A stretch of 52,789 bases of DNA from Pelomyxa schiedti (GCA_020536535.1 JAHLWZ010000004.1:404884-457672), one strand, 5' to 3'. Shown: positions 9,545-24,477, counted from the first letter of the stretch. The notes: a model not told the origin generated them from the letters alone. A program made the numbers and translations.

Positions 9545-11341
9545 TTAGTCTGGATACAAGTTAGGGAAAACTAAACAAAAGTGGATGCTCACCTGGTGCA
9601 CGTTTTCCTCAAGACGGGCCTGTGCCCTATGGCGCCTTTTTTCCGCTTCCCTTCTGAGGTGGTATGCTTCCTGTTTCATGGCCGCAATTTGCTCTCGTGT
9701 GAGTCCAATCCTCAAGTCATTCAGGGCGACCTTTCTGCTCGTATCACTCTCCGCAGTTACATCCACCATACCATATCTGTCACAATTGAAGGTCACAAGC
9801 ACCAGCTTTTCCCCATCTCTATTTGTGGGCAGCAGAGGCAGTTTAAACTCACCCAGACAGATACCCCTGCCTTGAATCACCCTGATTGTTACACTCGCAC
9901 TCCTGTTGCTGGTGTAGATATGACCCACAATCCTGAATGGAAACCCCTTGTTCTTTGGCACAATGACTTTCACTTTGGTGTCTGGTTTCTCGACACCAAG
10001 GCTGTGAGGAGTTACGTCAAGCAGCAGAATATCGTTAAGACAAGGGCTGGACTTGGCGGCGCCGGAGAGAATAGCAGCCTGCACAGCTGCACCATGTGCC
10101 GCGGCCTCCTCCCAATTACGGATATTGTTCGGCTGTAATCTGTGATCGAAAAGCTCTGAGACCAACTTCTGTATCATGGGGATCTGGGCGGATCCGCCAA
10201 CCATGATGACCTCACAAATGCTTATCTTAGAAACCGGTGGATCTTGAGATTGCAGTACTTGATCAATTAGGCCCACAGTTGATCTGAAAAACTGCTTGTT
10301 GACTTGCTCAAAAAAAGAGCGAGTAATCTTGCCCAAGTAGTTGATGCCAGCCAATAAGTCATTAATTTCCACAATGGCCTCTTCTTTCTCAGAAAGTGTT
10401 ATCTTGGCCCGCTCACAGGCAGTGCGAAGCATTCCCAGAGCTCTAGAATCACAATGCAGGTCCTTGTTGAATGTGGTCCTGAAGTCAGTTGCAAAGTGCT
10501 CCACCAAATTATGGTCGAGCTCCTCTCCACCAAGATGTGTGTTTCCAGCAGTCGCCAAGACATGAAGTACTCCTCCATTCGCAAGAAGTAGAGTGACATT
10601 CACTGTACCACCTCCAATATCGAAAACAACGATGTGGCCATCTTTTCGGTATCCCATAGCCACTGCAGTCGATTCATCTATGAGCCTAACTGGATGGAGA
10701 CCTGCGATTACCGCCGCGTCCCGAGTGGCTTTTCTCTGTACTTCGTTGAAATCCGCTGGGCACCTGTTGGGAGATATGCGGGATGAGAAGGATAAAGAGA
10801 AGCACAGGGACACAAACGTGATAACTGCCTGGTTGAACGACTTTCCCAAGTAGGATTCGGCAATATCCTTCATCTTTGCAAGGACCAGTGACAAAATTTC
10901 TTCTGGCGTGATCAACTTGATAATACCACAGTCTCTCACTTGAATAAGTGGGAGCCCAGAGTTGTCAACGATCTTGAACGGCCAGTTCCTCATGTCAGCC
11001 TGAAGGTTAGCATCCCCTGTCTTCCTCCCAATGATCCTCTTGATATCAAAAATGGTGCACTCTCGATTTCGCTCAATCTGCGCCACTGCCGCCTCCCCAA
11101 CGAGCGGCCCTCGGTCTGTGAACGCCACGCAAGTTGGAGTGGAGATGTTCCCCAGCTCGTTTGGCAGTACCTTCACCACACCACCCCTCCACACTGCGAC
11201 GCGACAATACGTAGTACCAAAGTCTATTCCAACACCGATGGGCTCCTCTGCAGCAGATGTTACCGGTAACGCCACGAACGAGGAACCTGTGGTTGTTCCC
11301 GCAGATCCCAATGCAGATGGAGGTACTGATGTCGCCGACAT
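9545..11341 (-). CDS. Hsp70-family chaperone, divergent cytosolic-type, with one 54-nt intron at 10764-10817
   Basis: Continuous 635-aa ORF with IDFGTTYCRVAV, DIGGGT, IKRIIGRK and the usual NBD/SBD collinearity (about 45% identity to Hsc70 by eye). The stretch AVIT[fvslcfslsfssrispnrc]PADFNEVQRKAT holds a gtttgt...caacag intron that happens to be in frame. There is an S/T-rich N-terminal extension; the likely start is MSATSVPPS at 11341. No C-terminal EEVD. Confidence 0.85.
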   Translation of the reverse strand: MSATSVPPSALGSAGTTTGSSFVALPVTSAAEEPIGVGIDFGTTYCRVAVWRGGVVKVLPNELGNISTPTCVAFTDRGPLVGEAAVAQIERNRECTIFDIKRIIGRKTGDANLQADMRNWPFKIVDNSGLPLIQVRDCGIIKLITPEEILSLVLAKMKDIAESYLGKSFNQAVITFVSLCFSLSFSSRISPNRCPADFNEVQRKATRDAAVIAGLHPVRLIDESTAVAMGYRKDGHIVVFDIGGGTVNVTLLLANGGVLHVLATAGNTHLGGEELDHNLVEHFATDFRTTFNKDLHCDSRALGMLRTACERAKITLSEKEEAIVEINDLLAGINYLGKITRSFFEQVNKQFFRSTVGLIDQVLQSQDPPVSKISICEVIMVGGSAQIPMIQKLVSELFDHRLQPNNIRNWEEAAAHGAAVQAAILSGAAKSSPCLNDILLLDVTPHSLGVEKPDTKVKVIVPKNKGFPFRIVGHIYTSNRSASVTIRVIQGRGICLGEFKLPLLPTNRDGEKLVLVTFNCDRYGMVDVTAESDTSRKVALNDLRIGLTREQIAAMKQEAYHLRREAEKRRHRAQARLEENVHQVSIHFCLVFPNLYPD

Positions 11342-11888
11342 GTTATTGTGCTTGTTGTTGGATCTCGCCCTGAGCGTTTGTGTTGTTATTTTTTTTGTGG
11401 TTATGAAATTATCCAGGTGATGAAGCCAAAAAAAGATCGACGCCTGTGGCACCCAGAATCATTTTGGTGGGCCATAGACGCCGTAGAAAGATGAAAGAAA
11501 AGAGGAATTGGGATTTTAGGTGCTTAGTTTTCAGACACGATTTAATTAACGTCAATACGCCACATAGATCTTGGGAAAAAGGGGTTTTCAGGAATGGACG
11601 CAGGGGATATGTCAAAGGGCTGACGTAATGACAGGTGTGACAAACGGGCTTAGATTTTCTATCCAAATATTTTTAGCTCGCCACAATTGGGTCAATTTGA
11701 AAAAAAAAACTGGAGGAAACAACAAACGGGAAACGGTTCCCGTTTTCTTGTTTTTTGGGATTTTTTTCTTTTTTGTTTGCCAGTTGAGTGTGTTTAGAAT
11801 ACTGCAAAACTGATTGTCATATGTAGTTTACATGGGCTCCACCATATTTATCGTAATGTATAGTTGTACAGTTGTCATAATCCCCCAG

Positions 11889-13190: not shown

Positions 13191-14023
13191 TCACAGAGTC
13201 ACATTGTCAAAGATGAAAGAGTAGTGCTCAGAGTGATCAGGAGGGTTGTCAATGACGAGAAGCTGGTTTGTTGAGGGGATCCACGAGGTCATAATCACTG
13301 ACCTGCCATATGAGGGGAGTGTGTTTCTGTAAGTGTCATCATACACCCCATGTGGTGTCAAACACCCCGGTAATCTCCCGACTCGTGTGTGCCTTTCCAA
13401 AGTAGAACTTCCCACACACAACAAACGCAAAGCCAGTCTGCCTCTTGACACGAGGGACAGTCCACGTCTGCAGGATTGCGAGGGAGTCAGGTTCCACCCT
13501 CGTGATGTGTATGTTGCCATTGTTGGGTGAGTGCACAACATACACCACACGCCCAGCATCAACATACCAGCACATGTCTGTGAACCCACCCCAGTCCCAT
13601 TCCGATTGCCCCGTGTGACCAGCTTCTGGTAGTGTTGCTGTTGCCACAGTTGATCCATCACTCACACGCACCTTGGTCATGGTGGCTGCATTGTATGGGC
13701 TGCAGTACACGTGGCCGTTGTGTGCTGCCTGGTATGTCCCACCAGGGTAGGGAGCTACGTCCTTGAGTGTGAATTGCCTTGGGTTGGTGTTGCTGATGAA
13801 GCTGGTCATGTTTTCAAACTCAATAAGTGGCTGATGATTGTAGGTGATGTCCCAATACACCTTCCCTGTAGAGTTGTCAATACACATCCTGACTGCCCGA
13901 CGAGGTGCGACGGATGGCACCATGCTGCCAAGTTGTTTGAGCGTCCGAGCAGCGGATGGACTGTCGATCACCTGTGGTTCTTGGGTACATTGAGTACAAG
14001 TGAGAAATTCGCCACTGGAGAAT
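13191..14023 (-). CDS. Olfactomedin (OLF)-domain protein, 3' exons. Further 5' exons probably lie upstream, possibly including the signal-peptide-like ORF at 15036-14755.
   Basis: ORFs 13971-13339 and 13661-13191 together align residue for residue with the myocilin/olfactomedin OLF domain. PEAGHTGQSEWDWGGFTDMCWYVDAGRVVYVVHS...IHITRVEPDSLAILQTWTVPRVKRQTGFAFVVCGKFYF...VFDTTWGVYDDTYRNTLPSYGRSVIMTSWIPSTNQLLVIDN matches [33 protein letters not shown]...[29 protein letters not shown]...AYDTGTG..IPFKNRYKYSSMIDYNP..KLFAWDN. An apparent 1-nt frame change sits at a GGGG run near 13340. Confidence 0.75.
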
Positions 14024-17674: not shown

Positions 17675-19690
17675 ATGCCATCACGAATAAAGCCGCAACA
17701 ACCGCGGCTGGTGAAGCGTATACAACATGTCGCTGGTGGTGCTTTGAGATCTCACCTTGTTGGATTGTCGCACTCATCGGTGGACGCTGTTGTAAAGTCT
17801 TACGTGGTGCCTTCGTCGCCACCGGAAGAGCAGCTGGAAAAAGTGGTTTTGGATCCACCTAAACTCGAATCCCCTGTGAGTGTGATGCCGGCTTTGATTG
17901 ATGTGGCGAATGCAACTTTGCCAGGAGCCTCTTTACCGCCTGTTGACATAGGAAGAGATGAGTTTACTTCCGACGACACACACGGAACATGGGCACATAG
18001 AGTGGCGAAGGTGACATTTTATTCTTTTTTCAAAAAGAAAACATGGGTCACTAACGTGAGAGAACTTTTTAACCTTAACAAGGTCTATGACCCCTCTTCT
18101 ATGGAAAAGCTACCCTATTTCCCAGAGGCATATTTTGTTGCCAGGCGAGACGTTCTTTCCCGGTCTTATGTGCAGAGGTCATCTATTATCGTAATTGAAC
18201 TTCATATTGGAGGTTTCTACGTAAGACAAATACATGCTCTTACCTACACTCTTAGTTGATGCCTTGAGTAAGTATTACTTTCGGGTTCTAGTTATTCGTG
18301 GTTCCAGAGAGAAAATTGATACTGGAAATGCCACCAAGGGAATAATGTACGCGAGCACACTTAGTGATGCACAAGCCATCTATGGGTCTCTTGTGCGAGA
18401 GAAGGTCGTAATTAATGATACAAATACAATCTTAAAGAAAATAGACCTCAAACATGAACAAGTATAAAAAGATCATTTTGTCATTTGCAAATATGGGAAC
18501 AAGCACAAGTACCCTTTCTCTCATTGAAGAAATTACCTTACACATGCTGCTAAGTTACACCAGTTTCTGCTTTATCAAAAGACGTTCGAGATCTTCTCCT
18601 TCATTTATACAAGGAGTGTGCTCTACAGCTTTCTAATAAACAAATCAACTTCGATAAAGTTTCTCCTCCTCAAATTGAAAAAGCCCTTGTTGTTCTATAC
18701 AAAATGCGAGAAGTATGATATCACACTGGATGCCAGTCATTTTTTTAAAACAAAAAATAAGGAGCTGAAATCCAATGATGTCATAGAGGCTACAAAAGCG
18801 TCTGCCCTTTCTTCCGAATTTTTTTCTCTTGTTCCAGTTGGGCAATCTAGGCAAAAAGTTTTTCCACTCCTTCTACTCCACTTTTACACTGTTTCTAGTT
18901 GATTAGCACAATGGAACAAGTCTTGGAGTGGCTAGATTTATTACAGTCGATGAAAGATCTTACAAATCTTGGAGAGGCCTCCTTTGATATGAGTGGAAAT
19001 TTAAATGATGTTGACATGCTGTCTGCAGCACTAATTTCCCATTTTATATGACTCTAAACAAAATGAAGATACTACTCTTTAGGTTGCGATATTGACCTGG
19101 TCAGTCCGTCGTCATCAGAATATGCAAATATTGTTGAGATTATAGGTCAACGCAGGCAGCGTAACGGAGGAGGGCCTCTTACAATAGGAAAGATCTTCAA
19201 AGCACATAGACATATGGATTTATCATCATTTACTAATGGAATATCCAATCATCAATTGTTATTCCATGGAACTGCAATAGGTCTCACTTTCACTCTCTTC
19301 TCGTCCACTCACTTAAAGCAAGGGAATTGGCTTGGTATATTGTCAAGAGGCATGCTTCTGCCCCAAGTGGTCGTTAAGCTAGGAGTTAAACGTACCAATG
19401 CTGGAAATATGGGGGCTGGCCTTTACTTCGCCGATGATCCTATGACAGCCTTGAAGTATTCCGCTACTGGTGCCATGGGTGCTATGGGTACTAAGTATGT
19501 TTGCATTCTTTCAACCTTTGTTTAACCCATTCTAAGATACCTATTGCTATCCAATGTAGCTCTTGGAACAGTTAAAGATTTGTATAAATTTGACTCGAGC
19601 CTTAGCTCACCACCCCCTGGATTTGATAGTTGTCACGGCGTAAAAAGAACAGCAACATCACCAAGTGATTTTGATGATGATGAGTAATAT
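17675..19690 (+). CDS. Gene with a C-terminal PARP catalytic domain (exons about 19214-19473 and 19557-19690, probably continuing); the N-terminal 1.5 kb is of unknown function
   Basis: LLFHGTAIG...LGILSRGMLLPQVVVKLGVKRTNAGNMGAGLYFADDPMTALKYSATG..ALGTVKDLYKFDSSLSSPPPGFDSCHGVKRTATSPSDFDDDE aligns with the PARP1 catalytic core ([49 protein letters not shown]...GEVALGNMYEL...). H and Y of the H-Y-E triad are present. The position of the catalytic Glu reads GAMGAM|ALG, with no Glu visible. The last codons are followed by gtaata, a plausible donor. Confidence 0.65.
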
Positions 19691-19939
19691 CTCCCAAAGC
19701 TTGACATCTCAAGAGCTGACCTTCCAATAGATTTATTATTTACAATACATCGCAACAACACGTGCAATACTTGATTGAAGTTGACAGCCCCGGTGTGACA
19801 ACAATCTCAAGCACTCCTCTCTTGTCCCCTCCAAAAAAGCCTAGACCAATTGGGCAACTATCAACATCTATTCCAGAAGCTCTCCCCGACCTTCCTCCAG
19901 TAACAATATCCTAGTACCTCACATACAACTCATGTCTTT

Positions 19940-22200
19940 CCATGTTTTCCCAGTCAAATGAAAAGGCTGGTCTTATGTCTAGCTCAGGGACTCCCGTACC
20001 TTTGGAGGCCGTAAGCATTCACGCAAAACTCATTGGTACCTTGGCAGCAAAATTCTCATTATTTATCTTTCCGGATAGATCTTGTGGCGGAAGTGGTGAT
20101 GTTACAAGAATTCAACAATGTTGGGGATGAACCCATAGAAGCTAAATATGTTTTCCCGCTTGACGAAAAATCTGCTGTTGTTGGCTTCGAGGCATTTATC
20201 AATCGTACTTTACAAAGAAAAGAACCCTACTAACTGTGAATAGACAAACACATTGTTGGTGTTGTTAAGGAGAAGGAACAGGCACATAAGGAGTACAAGG
20301 CAGCTATAGAACGAGGTGATGGTGCCTATCTCCTGGATGAAGCTAAGTCAAGTGTTTTTACTGTATCTGTTGGAAATCTACCTCCAAAAACCAAAGTGGT
20401 GATCAAAATTTCATGTAAGCACCTCATCTCTAAGCCGCACACGTAATTACTTGACATTGTCAGATATTACGGAACTTGCTATTGAAGGAAATGCACGTAA
20501 ATTTGTTTGTCCAATGAATCTTGTTGGTCAACAAAAGCACAGTGCCCTAGCACAAGTTTCTCAATCTACCACAAAAACTGTAAATACAGTACAACCTCAG
20601 GTGAAAATAATTCATCTATCTTCTTTTTTTAAGTACATTAGGGTACGTTCTATATGGAGATTTCCATTAATATGCCCCACGTCATTCACGCTATTGAGAG
20701 CCCCTCCCACTCCATTCGTTACAAATCAACACCAAAGAAAGCAACACTGTTCTGGCTTGATCCCAGTTTGCTTTTTTTTTTTTAAATCAAATCGAACTAA
20801 CATTCATGCAGATCCCCCCACAACCGATTTCATTCTTCTTGTCCGGCTGTGTGATGTCCGTACTCCGTTCATGTGGGTAGAACGAACACCCACAGATATA
20901 TCCGTTCCTGAAGTGGAGGAACATGTAGCTATGGTTGCATTGTACCCTTCTCTTTCCGAAAATCTTCTATCCAACTCAGAGTGTTCGTCTTACCTCCCAT
21001 CTTTTTGTGCTGATATTTTAATAAAGACACCCTTCTTATTGATCAATCTGCCAGTATGATTCCTTCTCTCTCAGTGTGCAAACAAGTGGCCCATCACCTT
21101 GGTATGAACTACTGTGCTTCCTACGAAATATATTCATAAAACAAGTCCGAGGAATTCCGCTGATGGCTTCTTTTAATATTATAACATTTGGCTCTGTGTT
21201 TGAACCACTGTTCCTTTCGCCAATTTTAAAAACTACCAGTTCTGCTGATCAAAGTGCTCTCTCACATATTTCTGTACTTCACAAAAAGTACTATTCATAG
21301 TGATAACATCATCAGAAACTCCAAGGTGACTGGGGAGCCAGTATTCTTTGGCCAGCGCTAAAATCCACACTCTTACAAATCGAAATCAGAGACAAGATGC
21401 CAAAATCCAGCACTGATTCATTGATTTCCAATCTTTTCATTATTACCGATGGTGATTTTTCTCATGATTCCCAAGTTTTCGATGTGTGTTTAAAAAACCA
21501 AACATTAACTTAACACCAACACTTCAAGCTCATCCGTGATCACTGCCAAAGGCCTGGAAATAAGACACGTATATTTTCTTTTGGGATTGGGACAGAAGTA
21601 CATAGGCACAACATTTTCACACTTGCCCGCCTTGGAGGTGGCGCTGCCGAATTTGTTGCCTCCAATAACCCACTTCGACGGCAGGTTCTAAATCTTCATT
21701 CAATAGTAAAAACGTGCTAATCTGTATCCTCAAATAGGTGTCAAGGCAACTGGAGCGGGCACAACAACCTTGCTTAAAAGATATTTCTGTAGAGTGGGGT
21801 GCACGTCATAGTGTTGCAGGTCCTGTGAAGCAAGCGCCACATAAGCTCATGTCCCTATTCAGTGGAGAACGCGTAATCATTTTTGCTTTTATTCCTCAAG
21901 ATTGCCACCAGGTATGTGCATCAGTGTCTTGCACAAAACCTGAAGGAATGAAAGGTTACCCTCCAAGCAGGCAGAAGTGATTCAGAAGAGAAATTTCAAA
22001 TAACTGTGACGTCCAACCTTGCTGAAACTGTTACGGGGCTAATGTTGCATAGACTTTGTGCTCGATCTGTGGTGAGGTATAAAACAAGCACCTCAACTAT
22101 TTTCCTCATTAAATGAAGAGACTGGGAAGATCAGTGCATCGCAGAGGACAGTGTATCAAGTGAGCTGGCAAGAGTTCAAGTGAGATCTTTTGAAGGCATA
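19940..22200 (+). CDS. VIT domain plus von Willebrand factor A domain protein. Possibly the 3' half of the same gene as the PARP domain, which would give a PARP4 (vault-PARP)-like architecture.
   Basis: VIT reads YVFPLDEKSAVVGFEAFINRTL | IVGVVKEKEQAHKEYKAAIERGDGAYLLDEAKSSVFTVSVGNLPPKTKVVIKISC. vWA reads TLLIDQSASM (MIDAS DxSxS) ... SFNIITFGSVFEPLF ... LFIITDGDFSHDS ... RIFSFGIGTEVHRHNIFTLARLGGGAAEFVASNN. Post-vWA conserved block is LKDISVEWGA...KLMSLFSGERVIIFAFIP. All are split by short introns. The 3' end is unresolved. Confidence 0.7.
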
Positions 22201-22744
22201 TCTCTTTCTAAGAAATGTGTAGAGAAAAGGGGAGATAATAGAATTGGGAATTCGGTACTCTCTTGCCACCACCTTAACCTCCTTTATCGCTGTAGAGGTA
22301 CTTCCTTTCACGTTTCCTTTTCTATTTTAAGTTCCAGTAGGAAAGAAGTGAAGAAGAGAAAAAAGGGTATCTTTTACAATACTGCACTAAATTGAAATAA
22401 AAGTATCACAGTTTAGTGAAATTAAAACCCACACCTCCGATAACTGAGCTGGCAAAGAGCGAAAAAGTTGACGAACTTCCGTTTTGTACAAATTGGAAGG
22501 AGGCAAAGAAAGAATTGTTTCAGTTAAACAGCATTCCTTTTAGGTACTCCTCGCTTCATATTAGTCAGTCATCTTCTAATTTACCTGAAAAAGTGAGAGG
22601 AAGAACTATGGAAGGGCGTACCACTCTACTGTGTATGATTTTTGGGCTCGGGCACCAGCAGAGACGCCTTTACCACCCTTAAACACAAATAATCCCTGTA
22701 ACTGCAAAATTTAACCACAAGTAGTATATTAATAGCTTTTCCCT

Positions 22745-23416
22745 ATGATAGATTGGACCCTAACATTCCCTGAGCAAGTTCCTGTGCGGCACGATCTCTT
22801 TGGCTTCATGCAGGATCAAAATGTCTCAGTAGAACTATTGTGTAAAAAGAAAAGCAGAATGCCAGGCATCCTAGCTCGCCGCAAGAGGGAAACGTTCTCC
22901 AATGCACTTTTCTGTGAAGATTCAGAGCTTAGTATAGCGCCCTGTTGTTCTAGTTCATCATCCAGGGGACTTATGTATTCCCCACTATCTCCCCCATGCA
23001 TGGAGGCGGAGGAGGATTCCTTTTGTGCAGAAGAAGAAATGTACGCACCTCCCATGCGACTCGCTTCACCAGCAGCGTCAGCCGCCGCCGCACCACCACC
23101 ACCACCACCACAAGCAGCAGCAGCACCATCTAAGGCTCTGCCACCCCCAACTACTACGCCGTCGCCTCCTTCTGCAAAACCCCAAAGCGCCAAGGCAGCA
23201 GCACCGCGGGCACAAGAGGACAAGAGGAAGGCCGATAGAAGAGCACGGTGTGAAGAAGAGGTGGAGAATGTAAAGAAGGTAATGAGGGAAAATATTGAGC
23301 ACGTGTTGGAACGAGGAGAGAGGATTGAGTGCCTTCAAGACAAGTCAGCTGATTTGGCATACGCTGGTGCAAGGTTCAAATCACTGTCCTCTCAGAGGTT
23401 ACCCCAATTTTTGTAG
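22745..23416 (+). CDS. R-SNARE (synaptobrevin/VAMP-like SNARE motif) protein apparently lacking a transmembrane anchor
   Basis: C-terminal VENVKKVMRENIEHVLERGERIECLQDKSADLAYAGARFKSLSSQ aligns with VAMP2 [45 protein letters not shown], including the zero-layer Arg. The ORF ends QRLPQFL* with a TAG at 23414-23416 and AATAAA at 23433-23438. The N-terminal 150 aa is low complexity (poly-A/P). Confidence 0.55.
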   Translation: MIDWTLTFPEQVPVRHDLFGFMQDQNVSVELLCKKKSRMPGILARRKRETFSNALFCEDSELSIAPCCSSSSSRGLMYSPLSPPCMEAEEDSFCAEEEMYAPPMRLASPAASAAAAPPPPPPQAAAAPSKALPPPTTTPSPPSAKPQSAKAAAPRAQEDKRKADRRARCEEEVENVKKVMRENIEHVLERGERIECLQDKSADLAYAGARFKSLSSQRLPQFL

Positions 23417-23432
23417 GCACGTTGTCTAACTG

Positions 23433-23438
23433 AATAAA
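23433..23438 (+). promoter_or_regulatory. AATAAA polyadenylation signal
   Basis: 17 nt after the TAG stop of the SNARE-like ORF. Confidence 0.5.
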
Positions 23439-23502
23439 GGTATTGCTGTTCGGCCCCTTCGTATGCGCCGATTTCACTGGCCTGCGATTCTTCTTATTCT
23501 AG

Positions 23503-23906
23503 GAAAAAAGCTGGCTGTTTTATAGCCACTGCTGCATTTGGTACTCCGATGGATACCAGGATAAATGTTTTGCGTTGCTTCAGGTTCGTTGCCCCAAGCA
23601 GGAGAACGAACACTCCTCACCCTTTGTAGAGACACAACTCTGCACAGCCATTGGCTAGGGCGGTCCTTCACTGCCCTTTATTATACACTTTCCCCGCCAG
23701 TTGCCACGTGGCTGACAAAGCACCCTCTAGCCTGCGCACTCACCAGGACGGCTTTCCTTGTACCAGTAGTCCTGTTACTTGAACACTGTGGATACTCCAA
23801 ATGTACGGATGTGGATCACAACAAAGCCGCCAAGCAGACACTCCTCTGGGCTTTGGCGATTTTGTTGGTGCCCTTCCTTCTCATCCTCTCCGTACTCGTT
23901 CTGTGA
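23503..23906 (+). CDS. Small membrane protein carrying a prokaryote-type CFIATAA(Y/F)G domain. Exons about 23503-23583 and 23630-23906 are resolved; a 5' exon is not resolved.
   Basis: Spliced (gttcgt...ttgtag, 46 nt) product reads ..KKAGCFIATAAFGTPMDTRINVLRCFR|DTTLHSHWLGRSFTALYYTLSPPVATWLTKHPLACALTRTAFLVPVVLLLEH...KQTLLWALAILLVPFLLILSVLVL*. The N-terminal 70 aa match, position by position, the CFIATAAYGTP...(I/V)LR.FRD..L....GR.FV..YY..SPP.A..I..HP.L.P..R..L.P.V pattern I recall from archaeal/bacterial secreted-protein C-terminal domains. It ends in a predicted TM helix. No in-frame ATG lies in the exon; an ATG at 23463 (MRRFHWPAILLIL, signal-peptide-like) is in another frame. Confidence 0.5.
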
Positions 23907-24023: not shown

Positions 24024-24477
24024 ATGAGCAGCGCCGGGACAACGGGCAGCAGCAAGACACACACAACCACTAAAAAACCACAAGCACTCAAGTCGAAGAC
24101 ACGCAGAAAGAGTGGTGGGCGTGTGGCGAGCGTAAAACGGAATGCAAAGACCAGAAAGGGCGCATCGAAGAAAATGCTGTCAGGCAAGTCCAAAGCGCGG
24201 TCGAAACGAACAGCGTTGAAGAGCGCCCCGGTTCCTCTCGTGGGGAAAGCTGCACTTCAAAAGCGTTTGGATGAGGTGTGCACCACGGTCTTCTTGCCAT
24301 TCAATAAGTAAATGTAACTGTTCTATTTAAGCTCTTGGAGCCTTTCACCCGCAAAAACCGTAAAAGCCGCTCTGCTGACTGGCCGACAGCTTCCAAGGAA
24401 GTTGTAAAACTTCTGGATACCTACAAAACTCCTCAAGGTGGCAATGTCAACGAAAAAAACCAAAAATAACCCTACAA
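24024..24477 (+). CDS. Hypothetical lysine/arginine-rich (basic, probably nuclear) protein, 2 exons
   Basis: ORF 24024-24311 is followed by a gtaaat..tttaag intron and a second exon ending in TAA near 24475. No family is recognised. Confidence 0.3.

Follow-up and report, generated by a model that had tools for sequence, protein, structure and literature searches.

A PARP4-like gene of the amoeba Pelomyxa schiedti with a probable membrane tail of prokaryotic CFI-box type behind an R-SNARE motif

Introduction

The CFI-box C-terminal domain (CFI_box_CTERM; NCBIfam NF041770), which catalogues otherwise list from bacteria and archaea only, is very common yet unstudied, and our literature search found no mention of it. 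A typical prokaryotic member begins with a signal peptide and surface domains (fn3, FG-GAP, subtilase or beta-helix), which are followed by a poly-Gly linker, the box, a transmembrane (TM) helix and a tail of Arg and Lys. The other systems that concern us are PARP4 (vault PARP), the R-SNAREs or brevins, and the bacterial VIT-vWA proteins that are anchored by sortases. The C-terminal part of human PARP4 binds the major vault protein. Here we describe a gene in a 52,789-nucleotide (nt) stretch from the genome of the anaerobic amoeba Pelomyxa schiedti (GCA_020536535.1 JAHLWZ010000004.1:404884-457672), referred to below as the window, with positions counted from its first letter. The gene probably encodes a PARP4-like enzyme with a membrane tail, which consists of a prokaryote-derived CFI-box and a TM helix placed just after an R-SNARE motif. 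The literature search gave no match for PARP4 together with Archamoebae.

Gene structure and product

A sequence-only reading of the window had placed a small two-exon gene at 23463-23906. These two exons are in fact exons 30 and 31, the 3' end of a 31-exon gene at 17675-23906 that encodes 1617 amino acids (aa). An exhaustive search of 1.84 billion representative proteins returned a single near-identical match (P0014; 1617 aa, E 4e-105), which is GenBank KAH3768093.1, 'protein mono-ADP-ribosyltransferase PARP4 [Pelomyxa schiedti]'. Spliced mapping of this protein onto the window is residue-for-residue exact from 17675 to 23903, and TGA follows. The features of the gene, from exon map, profile matches and structure prediction, are as follows.

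17675..23906, plus strand: whole PARP4-like gene; 31 exons, 30 GT-AG introns of 39-72 nt (median ~44), 1617 codons and TGA
22752..23397, plus strand: exon 29, 646 nt, the longest by far; Pro/Ala/Ser-rich linker, then R-SNARE motif (exon map)
23234..23389, plus strand: R-SNARE motif (residues 1424-1475), zero-layer Arg in LERGER (PF00957 Synaptobrevin)
23398..23439, plus strand: intron 29 as annotated, 42 nt, GT..AG
23441..23500, plus strand: Cys-rich linker YCCSAPSYAPISLACDSSYS from SNARE motif to CFI-box, preceding RKKAGCF (exon map)
23516..23583, plus strand: CFI-box-CTERM part 1, CFIATAAFGTPMDTRINVLRCF and the first two bases of a split Arg codon (NF041770; tblastn placement)
23584..23629, plus strand: intron 30, 46 nt, GT..AG, phase 2, within LRxFRD of the CFI-box, splitting the Arg codon of FRD
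23630..23759, plus strand: CFI-box-CTERM part 2, last base of the split Arg codon, then DTTLHSHWLGRSFTALYYTLSPPVATWLTKHPLACALTRTAFLV (NF041770; AlphaFold2)
23826..23903, plus strand: terminal TM helix AAKQTLLWALAILLVPFLLILSVLVL (Kyte-Doolittle, predicted helix); stop at 23904-23906 directly after

From N- to C-terminus the product comprises PARP_reg (residues 250-334), the PARP catalytic domain (PF00644; residues 367-547, 91 bits), VIT (PF08487; residues 602-712, 118.5 bits), vWA (VWA_3, PF13768; residues 858-1021, 44.3 bits), a conserved post-vWA region, a Pro/Ala-rich linker, the R-SNARE motif (Pfam Synaptobrevin, PF00957), a 21-aa Cys-rich linker, CFI-box-CTERM (NCBIfam; residues 1504-1569), a 25-aa spacer and the terminal TM helix. 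To our knowledge, this combination of PARP-VIT-vWA, R-SNARE motif, CFI-box and TM helix is an undescribed architecture. The gene itself is already deposited and named only PARP4; its SNARE and CFI-box parts are absent from the name and were found in no paper in the literature search. The genome paper (PMC8887013), which reports 7.43 introns per gene, used single-cell transcriptomes and PASA/EVM to refine its Augustus models; PARP and SNARE do not occur in its text.

Once 23584-23629 is removed, 23503-23583 and 23630-23906 of the plus strand lie in one frame, reading RKKAGCFIATAAFGTPMDTRINVLRCFR, then DTTLHSHWLGRSFTALYYTLSPPVATWLTKHPLACALTRTAFLVPVVLLLEHCGYSKCTDVDHNKAAKQTLLWALAILLVPFLLILSVLVL, then a stop. 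The peptide proposed from sequence alone (...GCFIATAAFGTPMDTRINVLRCFR joined to DTTLHSHWLGRSF...VLVL, with TGA at 23904-23906) is thus exact, and the spliceosomal intron said to interrupt the domain is real. It was also correct that the first visible exon holds no in-frame ATG. Of the causes suggested for the missing start, missed 5' exons proved right, 29 of them lying upstream; an indel is not needed, because the frame problem vanishes with the annotated upstream exons. The upstream ATG at 23463-23465 (MRRFHWPAILLIL...), thought to open a signal-peptide-like sequence in another frame, does lie in another frame, but it sits inside exon 30 and its reading frame ends after 20 codons, so it is no signal peptide. 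If this were a small gene of its own for a secretory or surface protein, whose signal-peptide exon had been missed or which had a frameshift or an indel near 23463-23503, that open reading frame (ORF) would have a role, and the prokaryotic box does usually end secreted proteins. We nevertheless hold such a gene to be very improbable, since the 20-codon ORF is out of frame within an exon whose frame is conserved in a related contig (L002, below), the annotated upstream exons remove the frame problem and the upstream domains are of cytosolic type.

The ORF at 22745-23416 has a GT donor at 23398 in phase with the CFI-box exon. The 21 residues that the annotated form of intron 29 retains (..SYAPISLA..) align with ..SYAPTMSLA.. 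of the L002 protein (P0017), and no intron of the gene exceeds 72 nt; for these two reasons the 42-nt form is favoured over a 105-nt one. The longer form would use an in-frame alternative acceptor at 23502 (..ttattctag|G), 63 nt 3' of the annotated 23439. It would drop the 21-aa Cys-rich linker and bring the SNARE motif directly to RKKAG-CFIATAAFG, a junction resembling the basic juxtamembrane linker of brevins. A model combining this 105-nt intron (23398-23502) with a start at ATG 22745 (336 aa) was considered and dropped, the gene's introns being 39-72 nt and the 21 extra residues being conserved in L002.

The CFI-box and the membrane tail

At the level of sequence, the match to NF041770 is far beyond chance. 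Against a curated cutoff of 40 bits, the tail alone scores 79.8 bits (E 9e-23, model positions 1-66 of 69), our own spliced model 77.3 bits and the annotated protein 75.6 bits, which bears out the assignment to the prokaryotic CFI-box family first made from the motif. In an 11-sequence alignment of the amoeba tail with ten database members, the invariant columns are C, F, I, A, T, A, A, G, L, R, D, G, YY, SP, A and P. The hallmark columns (CFIATAA[FY]G, LRxFRD, G, YY, SPPxA, P) are likewise invariant or nearly so in a 24-sequence alignment that includes the tail. There is no second copy of the box elsewhere in the window.

The box stops 48 residues before the end of the protein, and the TM helix makes up the last 22-26 residues. 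Among 148 motif-carrying representative matches, the distance from the box Cys to the C-terminus runs from ~64 to 221 residues, mostly 73-133; in Pelomyxa it is 114. The hydrophobic, membrane-spanning nature of the tail, another point of the earlier reading, was borne out by a 19-residue Kyte-Doolittle maximum of 2.9 and by an AlphaFold2 model of the 119-aa tail (built on the 24-sequence alignment), in which a TM helix is predicted at tail residues 94-118. The mean predicted local distance difference test score (pLDDT) of this model is 85.9 and exceeds 90 across the CFI-box, where four helices are predicted (tail residues 8-13, 19-30, 36-58 and 60-80). The first is the short hydrophobic IATAAF and the other three are longer; a spacer of lower confidence separates the box from the TM helix. 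In the eukaryotic copies, the fourth of the box helices is of moderate hydrophobicity (half-hydrophobic). No solved structure matching the CFI-box by sequence was found.

The R-SNARE motif

The PF00957 Synaptobrevin profile matches at 48.1 bits on the upstream ORF and at 43.4 bits on the annotated protein, the gathering score being 26.4. The match covers model positions 3-54 or 3-60 of 89, which is the SNARE motif without the TM segment of that family. Solved-structure matches of the motif were all R-SNAREs, with VAMP8 the best (1.2e-7), and VAMP4, Snc1, Nyv1, VAMP7, Ykt6 and Sec22b besides. A BLASTP comparison with a human VAMP2 sequence entered by hand gave 38% identity over 45 residues. LERGER is aligned with LARGEN of VAMP8 and LERDQK of VAMP2, and its Arg is the zero-layer residue. 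No short basic linker leads straight from the SNARE motif to the TM helix; the Cys-rich linker, the 66-aa CFI-box and the spacer intervene.

Among the four sequences known to us that combine a VIT-vWA protein with a CFI-box, the SNARE motif is detectable by Pfam only in Pelomyxa, and therefore looks like a later addition here or a loss in the others. The remaining 30 exons of the gene are 26-336 nt long, while exon 29 is intronless and holds nothing except the low-complexity linker and the R-SNARE motif. Its size and intronless state may be consistent with a later insertion, for example the capture of a brevin fragment.

Recurrence of the fusion in other sequences

The fusion is probably genuine and no assembly artefact, because in three other eukaryotic-looking sequences, too, a CFI-box and a TM helix stand at the end of a VIT-vWA protein. 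The first (L001) is a 3520-bp JGI metagenome contig with an intronless ORF that is open from base 1 to 2058 and colinear with Pelomyxa. It covers vWA and then a post-vWA region that is 46% identical to that of Pelomyxa, including LTSFIAVEERSE and YDFW. The linker that follows is of low complexity, has a poly-Pro run as well as a short coil, and leads to a CFI-box scoring 83.7 bits and then to a TM helix. The contig is marked as eukaryotic by an RPC5 gene (PF04801, 213.5 bits) that begins 68 nt downstream of this ORF. The second (L002/P0017; Logan contig, SRR23919873) has the post-vWA motif YTSFIAVEER, behind which come a linker rich in Ser, a stretch rich in Cys, a CFI-box scoring 93.9 bits, a spacer and, at the very end, a TM helix. 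The third (L096/P0111; Logan contig, SRR21762700) is a single 987-aa ORF in which VIT, vWA and TSFVAIE precede a CFI-box of 89.7 bits and a TM helix; the VIT-vWA part of this ORF is nearest to eukaryotic proteins, with 35% identity to a EukProt transcript. The literature search gave no match for the sample accessions. The two Logan contigs have in common the order post-vWA motif TSF[IV]A[VI]E, linker, CFI-box and TM helix. Cys-rich linkers also stand ahead of the box in L001 (EMCCDRLD) and L002 (YCLSEDICYSKCE..SEC).

Two peculiarities of these contigs were seen. The L001 ORF ends (2030-2058) in ..VVNCCC, a Cys cluster after the TM helix that is a candidate lipidation site and is absent in Pelomyxa. 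At 130-132 of L002 there is an in-frame TGA within the conserved post-vWA region (..VIQLATT, stop, YNVSSSYTSFIAVEER..) of an ORF that is otherwise open; the sequence may be in error here, the gene may be a pseudogene, or the genetic code may be a variant one.

Other eukaryotic VIT-vWA proteins (a chytrid protein, a EukProt transcript and a JGI protein) have no CFI-box, though they share the post-vWA region. A metagenome scan for further eukaryotic orthologues gave 13 distant vWA matches and none with a CFI-box.

The join of exon 28 to exon 29 (22697/22752) is the weakest in the gene model, because the linker there is not conserved. This is where an annotation might have wrongly fused two genes. 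Exons 29-31 would then be a separate brevin-like gene starting at ATG 22745 (~357 aa), its product having a Pro-rich N-terminus, the R-SNARE motif, the CFI-box and the TM helix. That ATG is in frame and its ORF runs cleanly into exon 29, an R-SNARE motif behind an N-terminus rich in Pro and Ala is reminiscent of short brevins, exon 29 is atypically long, and the GC content at third codon positions (GC3) is higher at the 3' end. We judge a pair of genes to be unlikely all the same. Three independent relatives have the post-vWA region and the CFI-box with its TM helix in one ORF, L001 without any intron, and intron 22698-22751 is canonical at its ends and, with 54 nt, of a usual size. Left unspliced at 22698, the upstream gene would moreover stop at 22712-22714 (ORF 22631..22714), 30 nt before ATG 22745; a gap of this size leaves no room for a terminator and a promoter and is too close for two independent genes. 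A single gene is, in our estimation, very probable.

Distribution and origin of the CFI-box

In a search of one genome per prokaryotic species, CFIATAA[FY]G occurred in at least 600 genome stretches, with 591 confirmed among the matches listed. The bacterial matches listed are from Dehalococcoidia and other Chloroflexota, Desulfobacterota, Nitrospirota, Proteobacteria and Bdellovibrionota, and the archaeal ones include Methanophagales/ANME-1, Bathyarchaeota, Hadesarchaea and Halobacteriota. Several assemblies have more than one locus (for example two each in CAISEW01, DATKWL01 and QENH01). A profile search found 5944 CFI-box proteins at E <= 1e-6, every named one of them prokaryotic, and a word-indexed homologue search gave 13 prokaryote-like matches.

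A quarter or more of the members terminate right after the box, without a TM helix, and some look cytoplasmic. In one (P0001) the N-terminus is a zinc ribbon and hydrophobic segments are absent altogether; another (P0027) has a coiled-coil N-terminus and no TM helix after the box. Neither has an obvious signal peptide, from which it follows that the box can work in the cytoplasm. Four long prokaryote-like proteins (P0015, P0016, P0019 and P0142) have two copies of the box, in which an internal copy and TM helix are followed by what seems to be a new signal or lipoprotein peptide; it seems that either neighbouring CFI-box genes have been read as a single one or the tandem fusions are genuine.

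These data also bear on the chief mechanistic alternative to a stable domain. By analogy with PEP-CTERM/exosortase, PGF-CTERM/archaeosortase and LPXTG/sortase, the CFI-box might be a processed sorting signal, with a dedicated enzyme that would recognise the box, cut the protein at the invariant Cys or close to it, and attach it to a lipid or some other acceptor. The N-terminal Cys is indeed invariant and the C-terminal position strict, the box is common to many unrelated passenger domains, prokaryotic genomes may hold several copies, and the conserved residues, Cys included, are kept in the eukaryote-type copies. We still find processing of this kind doubtful, though it is the rival to be taken most seriously as regards mechanism. 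No partner enzyme was found, the members without a TM helix include cytoplasmic-looking ones (those with zinc-ribbon or coiled-coil N-termini), the predicted four-helix fold is unlike the short tripartite sorting signals, and a eukaryote would need the processing enzyme too. We know of no partner enzyme for the CFI-box.

No prokaryotic combination of VIT-vWA and CFI-box was present among 80 genome loci, and among ~290 proteins examined the two motifs were combined only in eukaryote-type ones. The best identity to the Pelomyxa copy is ~54%, with no clear donor. Because the box is abundant in prokaryotes, the transfer is read as running from prokaryote to eukaryote; gene transfer into Archamoebae is well known. 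From the shared architecture we infer that the box was probably joined to a VIT-vWA protein in an ancestor common to Pelomyxa and at least three other eukaryotic-looking lineages. After the transfer it was shuffled into a new protein and gained an intron inside the domain.

Genomic neighbourhood

The genes around the PARP4-like gene are eukaryotic: Hsp70, an olfactomedin-like gene (OLF), a dual-specificity phosphatase (DSPc), a lysine methyltransferase and TPR. The following ORFs were delimited.

9545-11452, minus strand: Hsp70 gene (PF00012, 418 bits)
13339-13971, minus strand: olfactomedin-like ORF (PF02191, 79.5 bits), a domain unusual in an amoebozoan
24024-24311, plus strand: Lys/Ser/Thr-rich ORF of 95 aa, directly downstream of the PARP4-like gene

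No Pfam family matches the 95-aa ORF, and scanning the whole window for Rfam families and for tRNAs gave nothing. The Hsp70 ORF holds an odd segment (..VITFVSLCFSLSFSSRISPNRCPADFNEVQRKAT..) where Hsp70s normally have ..VITVPAYFN..; the ORF finder seems to have run through a short intron that is in frame here.

The neighbourhood matters for the question of whether a CFI-box gene fragment of bacterial or archaeal origin came into an amoeba scaffold through prokaryotic contamination or a chimeric assembly. Relatives of the Pelomyxa symbiont groups carry CFI-box genes, and two published reports describe Pelomyxa with bacterial and archaeal endosymbionts and a genome obtained from amplified single cells (PMC8887013, PMC10579272). 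The domain, however, contains a 46-nt GT-AG intron of a size typical for the genome, its reading frame runs on from the upstream eukaryotic exons, its composition is that of the window and the flanking genes are eukaryotic. These four observations effectively exclude an artefact, and the recurrence of the same architecture in other contigs is a further point against one, leaving contamination with next to no credibility. The proposal, made from sequence alone, of a prokaryote-derived module in a eukaryote stands as regards the domain family and the eukaryotic setting; its secretory side appears unlikely, given the cytosolic-type domains and the sole strong TM helix at the C-terminus.

Proposed working of the protein

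The CFI-box and TM helix would together form the membrane anchor of the PARP4-like protein. Because the sole strong TM helix lies at the extreme C-terminus with nothing after it, a tail-anchored topology is suggested, which would place ~1590 residues (PARP, VIT-vWA, SNARE motif and CFI-box) on the cytosolic side. The box would be a compact four-helix module next to the bilayer, and the cysteines near it are candidates for S-acylation. The cysteines flanking the box are conserved as a Cys-rich linker in L001 and L002; in many prokaryotic members this place is taken by poly-Gly. The R-SNARE motif would probably dock to, or regulate, Q-SNAREs on a target membrane. Docking or regulation seems likelier than a role in driving fusion, since the ~115 residues by which the motif precedes the TM helix are too great a distance for classical zippering into the membrane.

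Several points weigh against an enzyme with a membrane tail of this origin and working. The joins 22697/22752 and 23397/23440 rest on the published annotation (PMC8887013), intron-size statistics and homologues. Domain-only BLAST does not group the four eukaryote-type CFI-boxes together, the domain being too short and too conserved, so a single acquisition has to be argued from architecture alone. The usual prokaryotic context is opposite in topology, with the box outside the cell and the basic tail inside, and the prokaryotic function may for that reason not carry over. The PDB held no structural relative of the CFI-box that would indicate a mechanism. GC3, finally, is 0.53 in the last 139 codons and 0.37 in the first 1250, values that lie within the range of neighbouring genes. 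Along the coding sequence it goes from 0.46 at the 5' end to ~0.31 in the middle and ~0.5 over the SNARE, CFI-box and TM part, and other ORFs in the window have 0.34 to 0.64. GC3 was dropped as a sign of recent transfer, the rise being gradual and inside the local range.

With these points set against the profile matches and the recurrence of the fusion, we regard a PARP4-like enzyme with a prokaryote-derived, membrane-anchoring tail as the probable reading. More tentatively, a small eukaryotic VIT-vWA/PARP4-like clade could use the CFI-box as a cytosol-facing tail anchor, to which Pelomyxa would have added an R-SNARE motif and so made a SNARE-docking membrane ADP-ribosyltransferase. If so, docking might take place on phagosomes or on vacuoles that house prokaryotic endosymbionts, and the CFI-box would work on its own on either membrane face and in both domains of life. 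If a eukaryotic copy is under selection in the other membrane orientation, the box cannot depend on the cell envelope; in this way a eukaryotic copy limits what the domain can be doing, and it would give an experimental route into a very large, unstudied prokaryotic domain family. The locus is also a clean case of domain-level transfer from prokaryote to eukaryote. What its sequence predicts is an ADP-ribosyltransferase that is tethered to a membrane and docks through its SNARE motif, in an amoeba with prokaryotes inside its cells.

Comparison with known systems

With the CFI-box-CTERM family (NF041770) the Pelomyxa protein shares the full signature (CFIATAA[FY]G...LRxFRD...G...YY..SPP.A...P), the C-terminal place and the hydrophobic helix that follows. 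It differs from the prokaryotic members in its eukaryotic host, in the intron inside the domain and in a Cys-rich basic linker instead of poly-Gly. Its TM helix ends the protein, with no basic cytoplasmic tail, and its passenger is a large cytosolic-type enzyme and not a secreted surface domain, the box being predicted on the cytosol side.

The order PARP_reg, PARP, VIT and vWA is shared with PARP4 (vault PARP) and VWA5A-like proteins, and the post-vWA region (..TSFIAVEE..) is common to chytrid and other eukaryotic VIT-vWA proteins. Pfam (E <= 0.01) found no N-terminal BRCT domain of PARP4 in the Pelomyxa protein. Where human PARP4 has its own C-terminus, Pelomyxa has the SNARE motif, CFI-box and TM helix, and this replacement is the reason for predicting that its protein is membrane-bound.

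R-SNAREs or brevins such as VAMP8, VAMP4 and Snc1 have in common with it a 53-residue SNARE motif with zero-layer Arg and a C-terminal membrane anchor. Unlike them, the Pelomyxa protein has neither the juxtamembrane linker and TM segment of the PF00957 family nor a longin domain. Its SNARE motif is separated from the TM helix by ~115 residues that include a folded domain, and its N-terminus is a 1400-aa PARP-VIT-vWA protein.

The bacterial VIT-vWA sortase targets (TIGR03788) and the LPXTG, PEP-CTERM and PGF-CTERM systems resemble it in joining a passenger, in the first case VIT-vWA, to a C-terminal anchoring module. The VIT-vWA part of Pelomyxa scores 190 bits on TIGR03788, far below the family cutoff of 551.65. 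Whereas LPXTG, PEP-CTERM and PGF-CTERM are short cleaved signals, the anchor in Pelomyxa is a folded 70-aa helical domain, as predicted, together with a TM helix.

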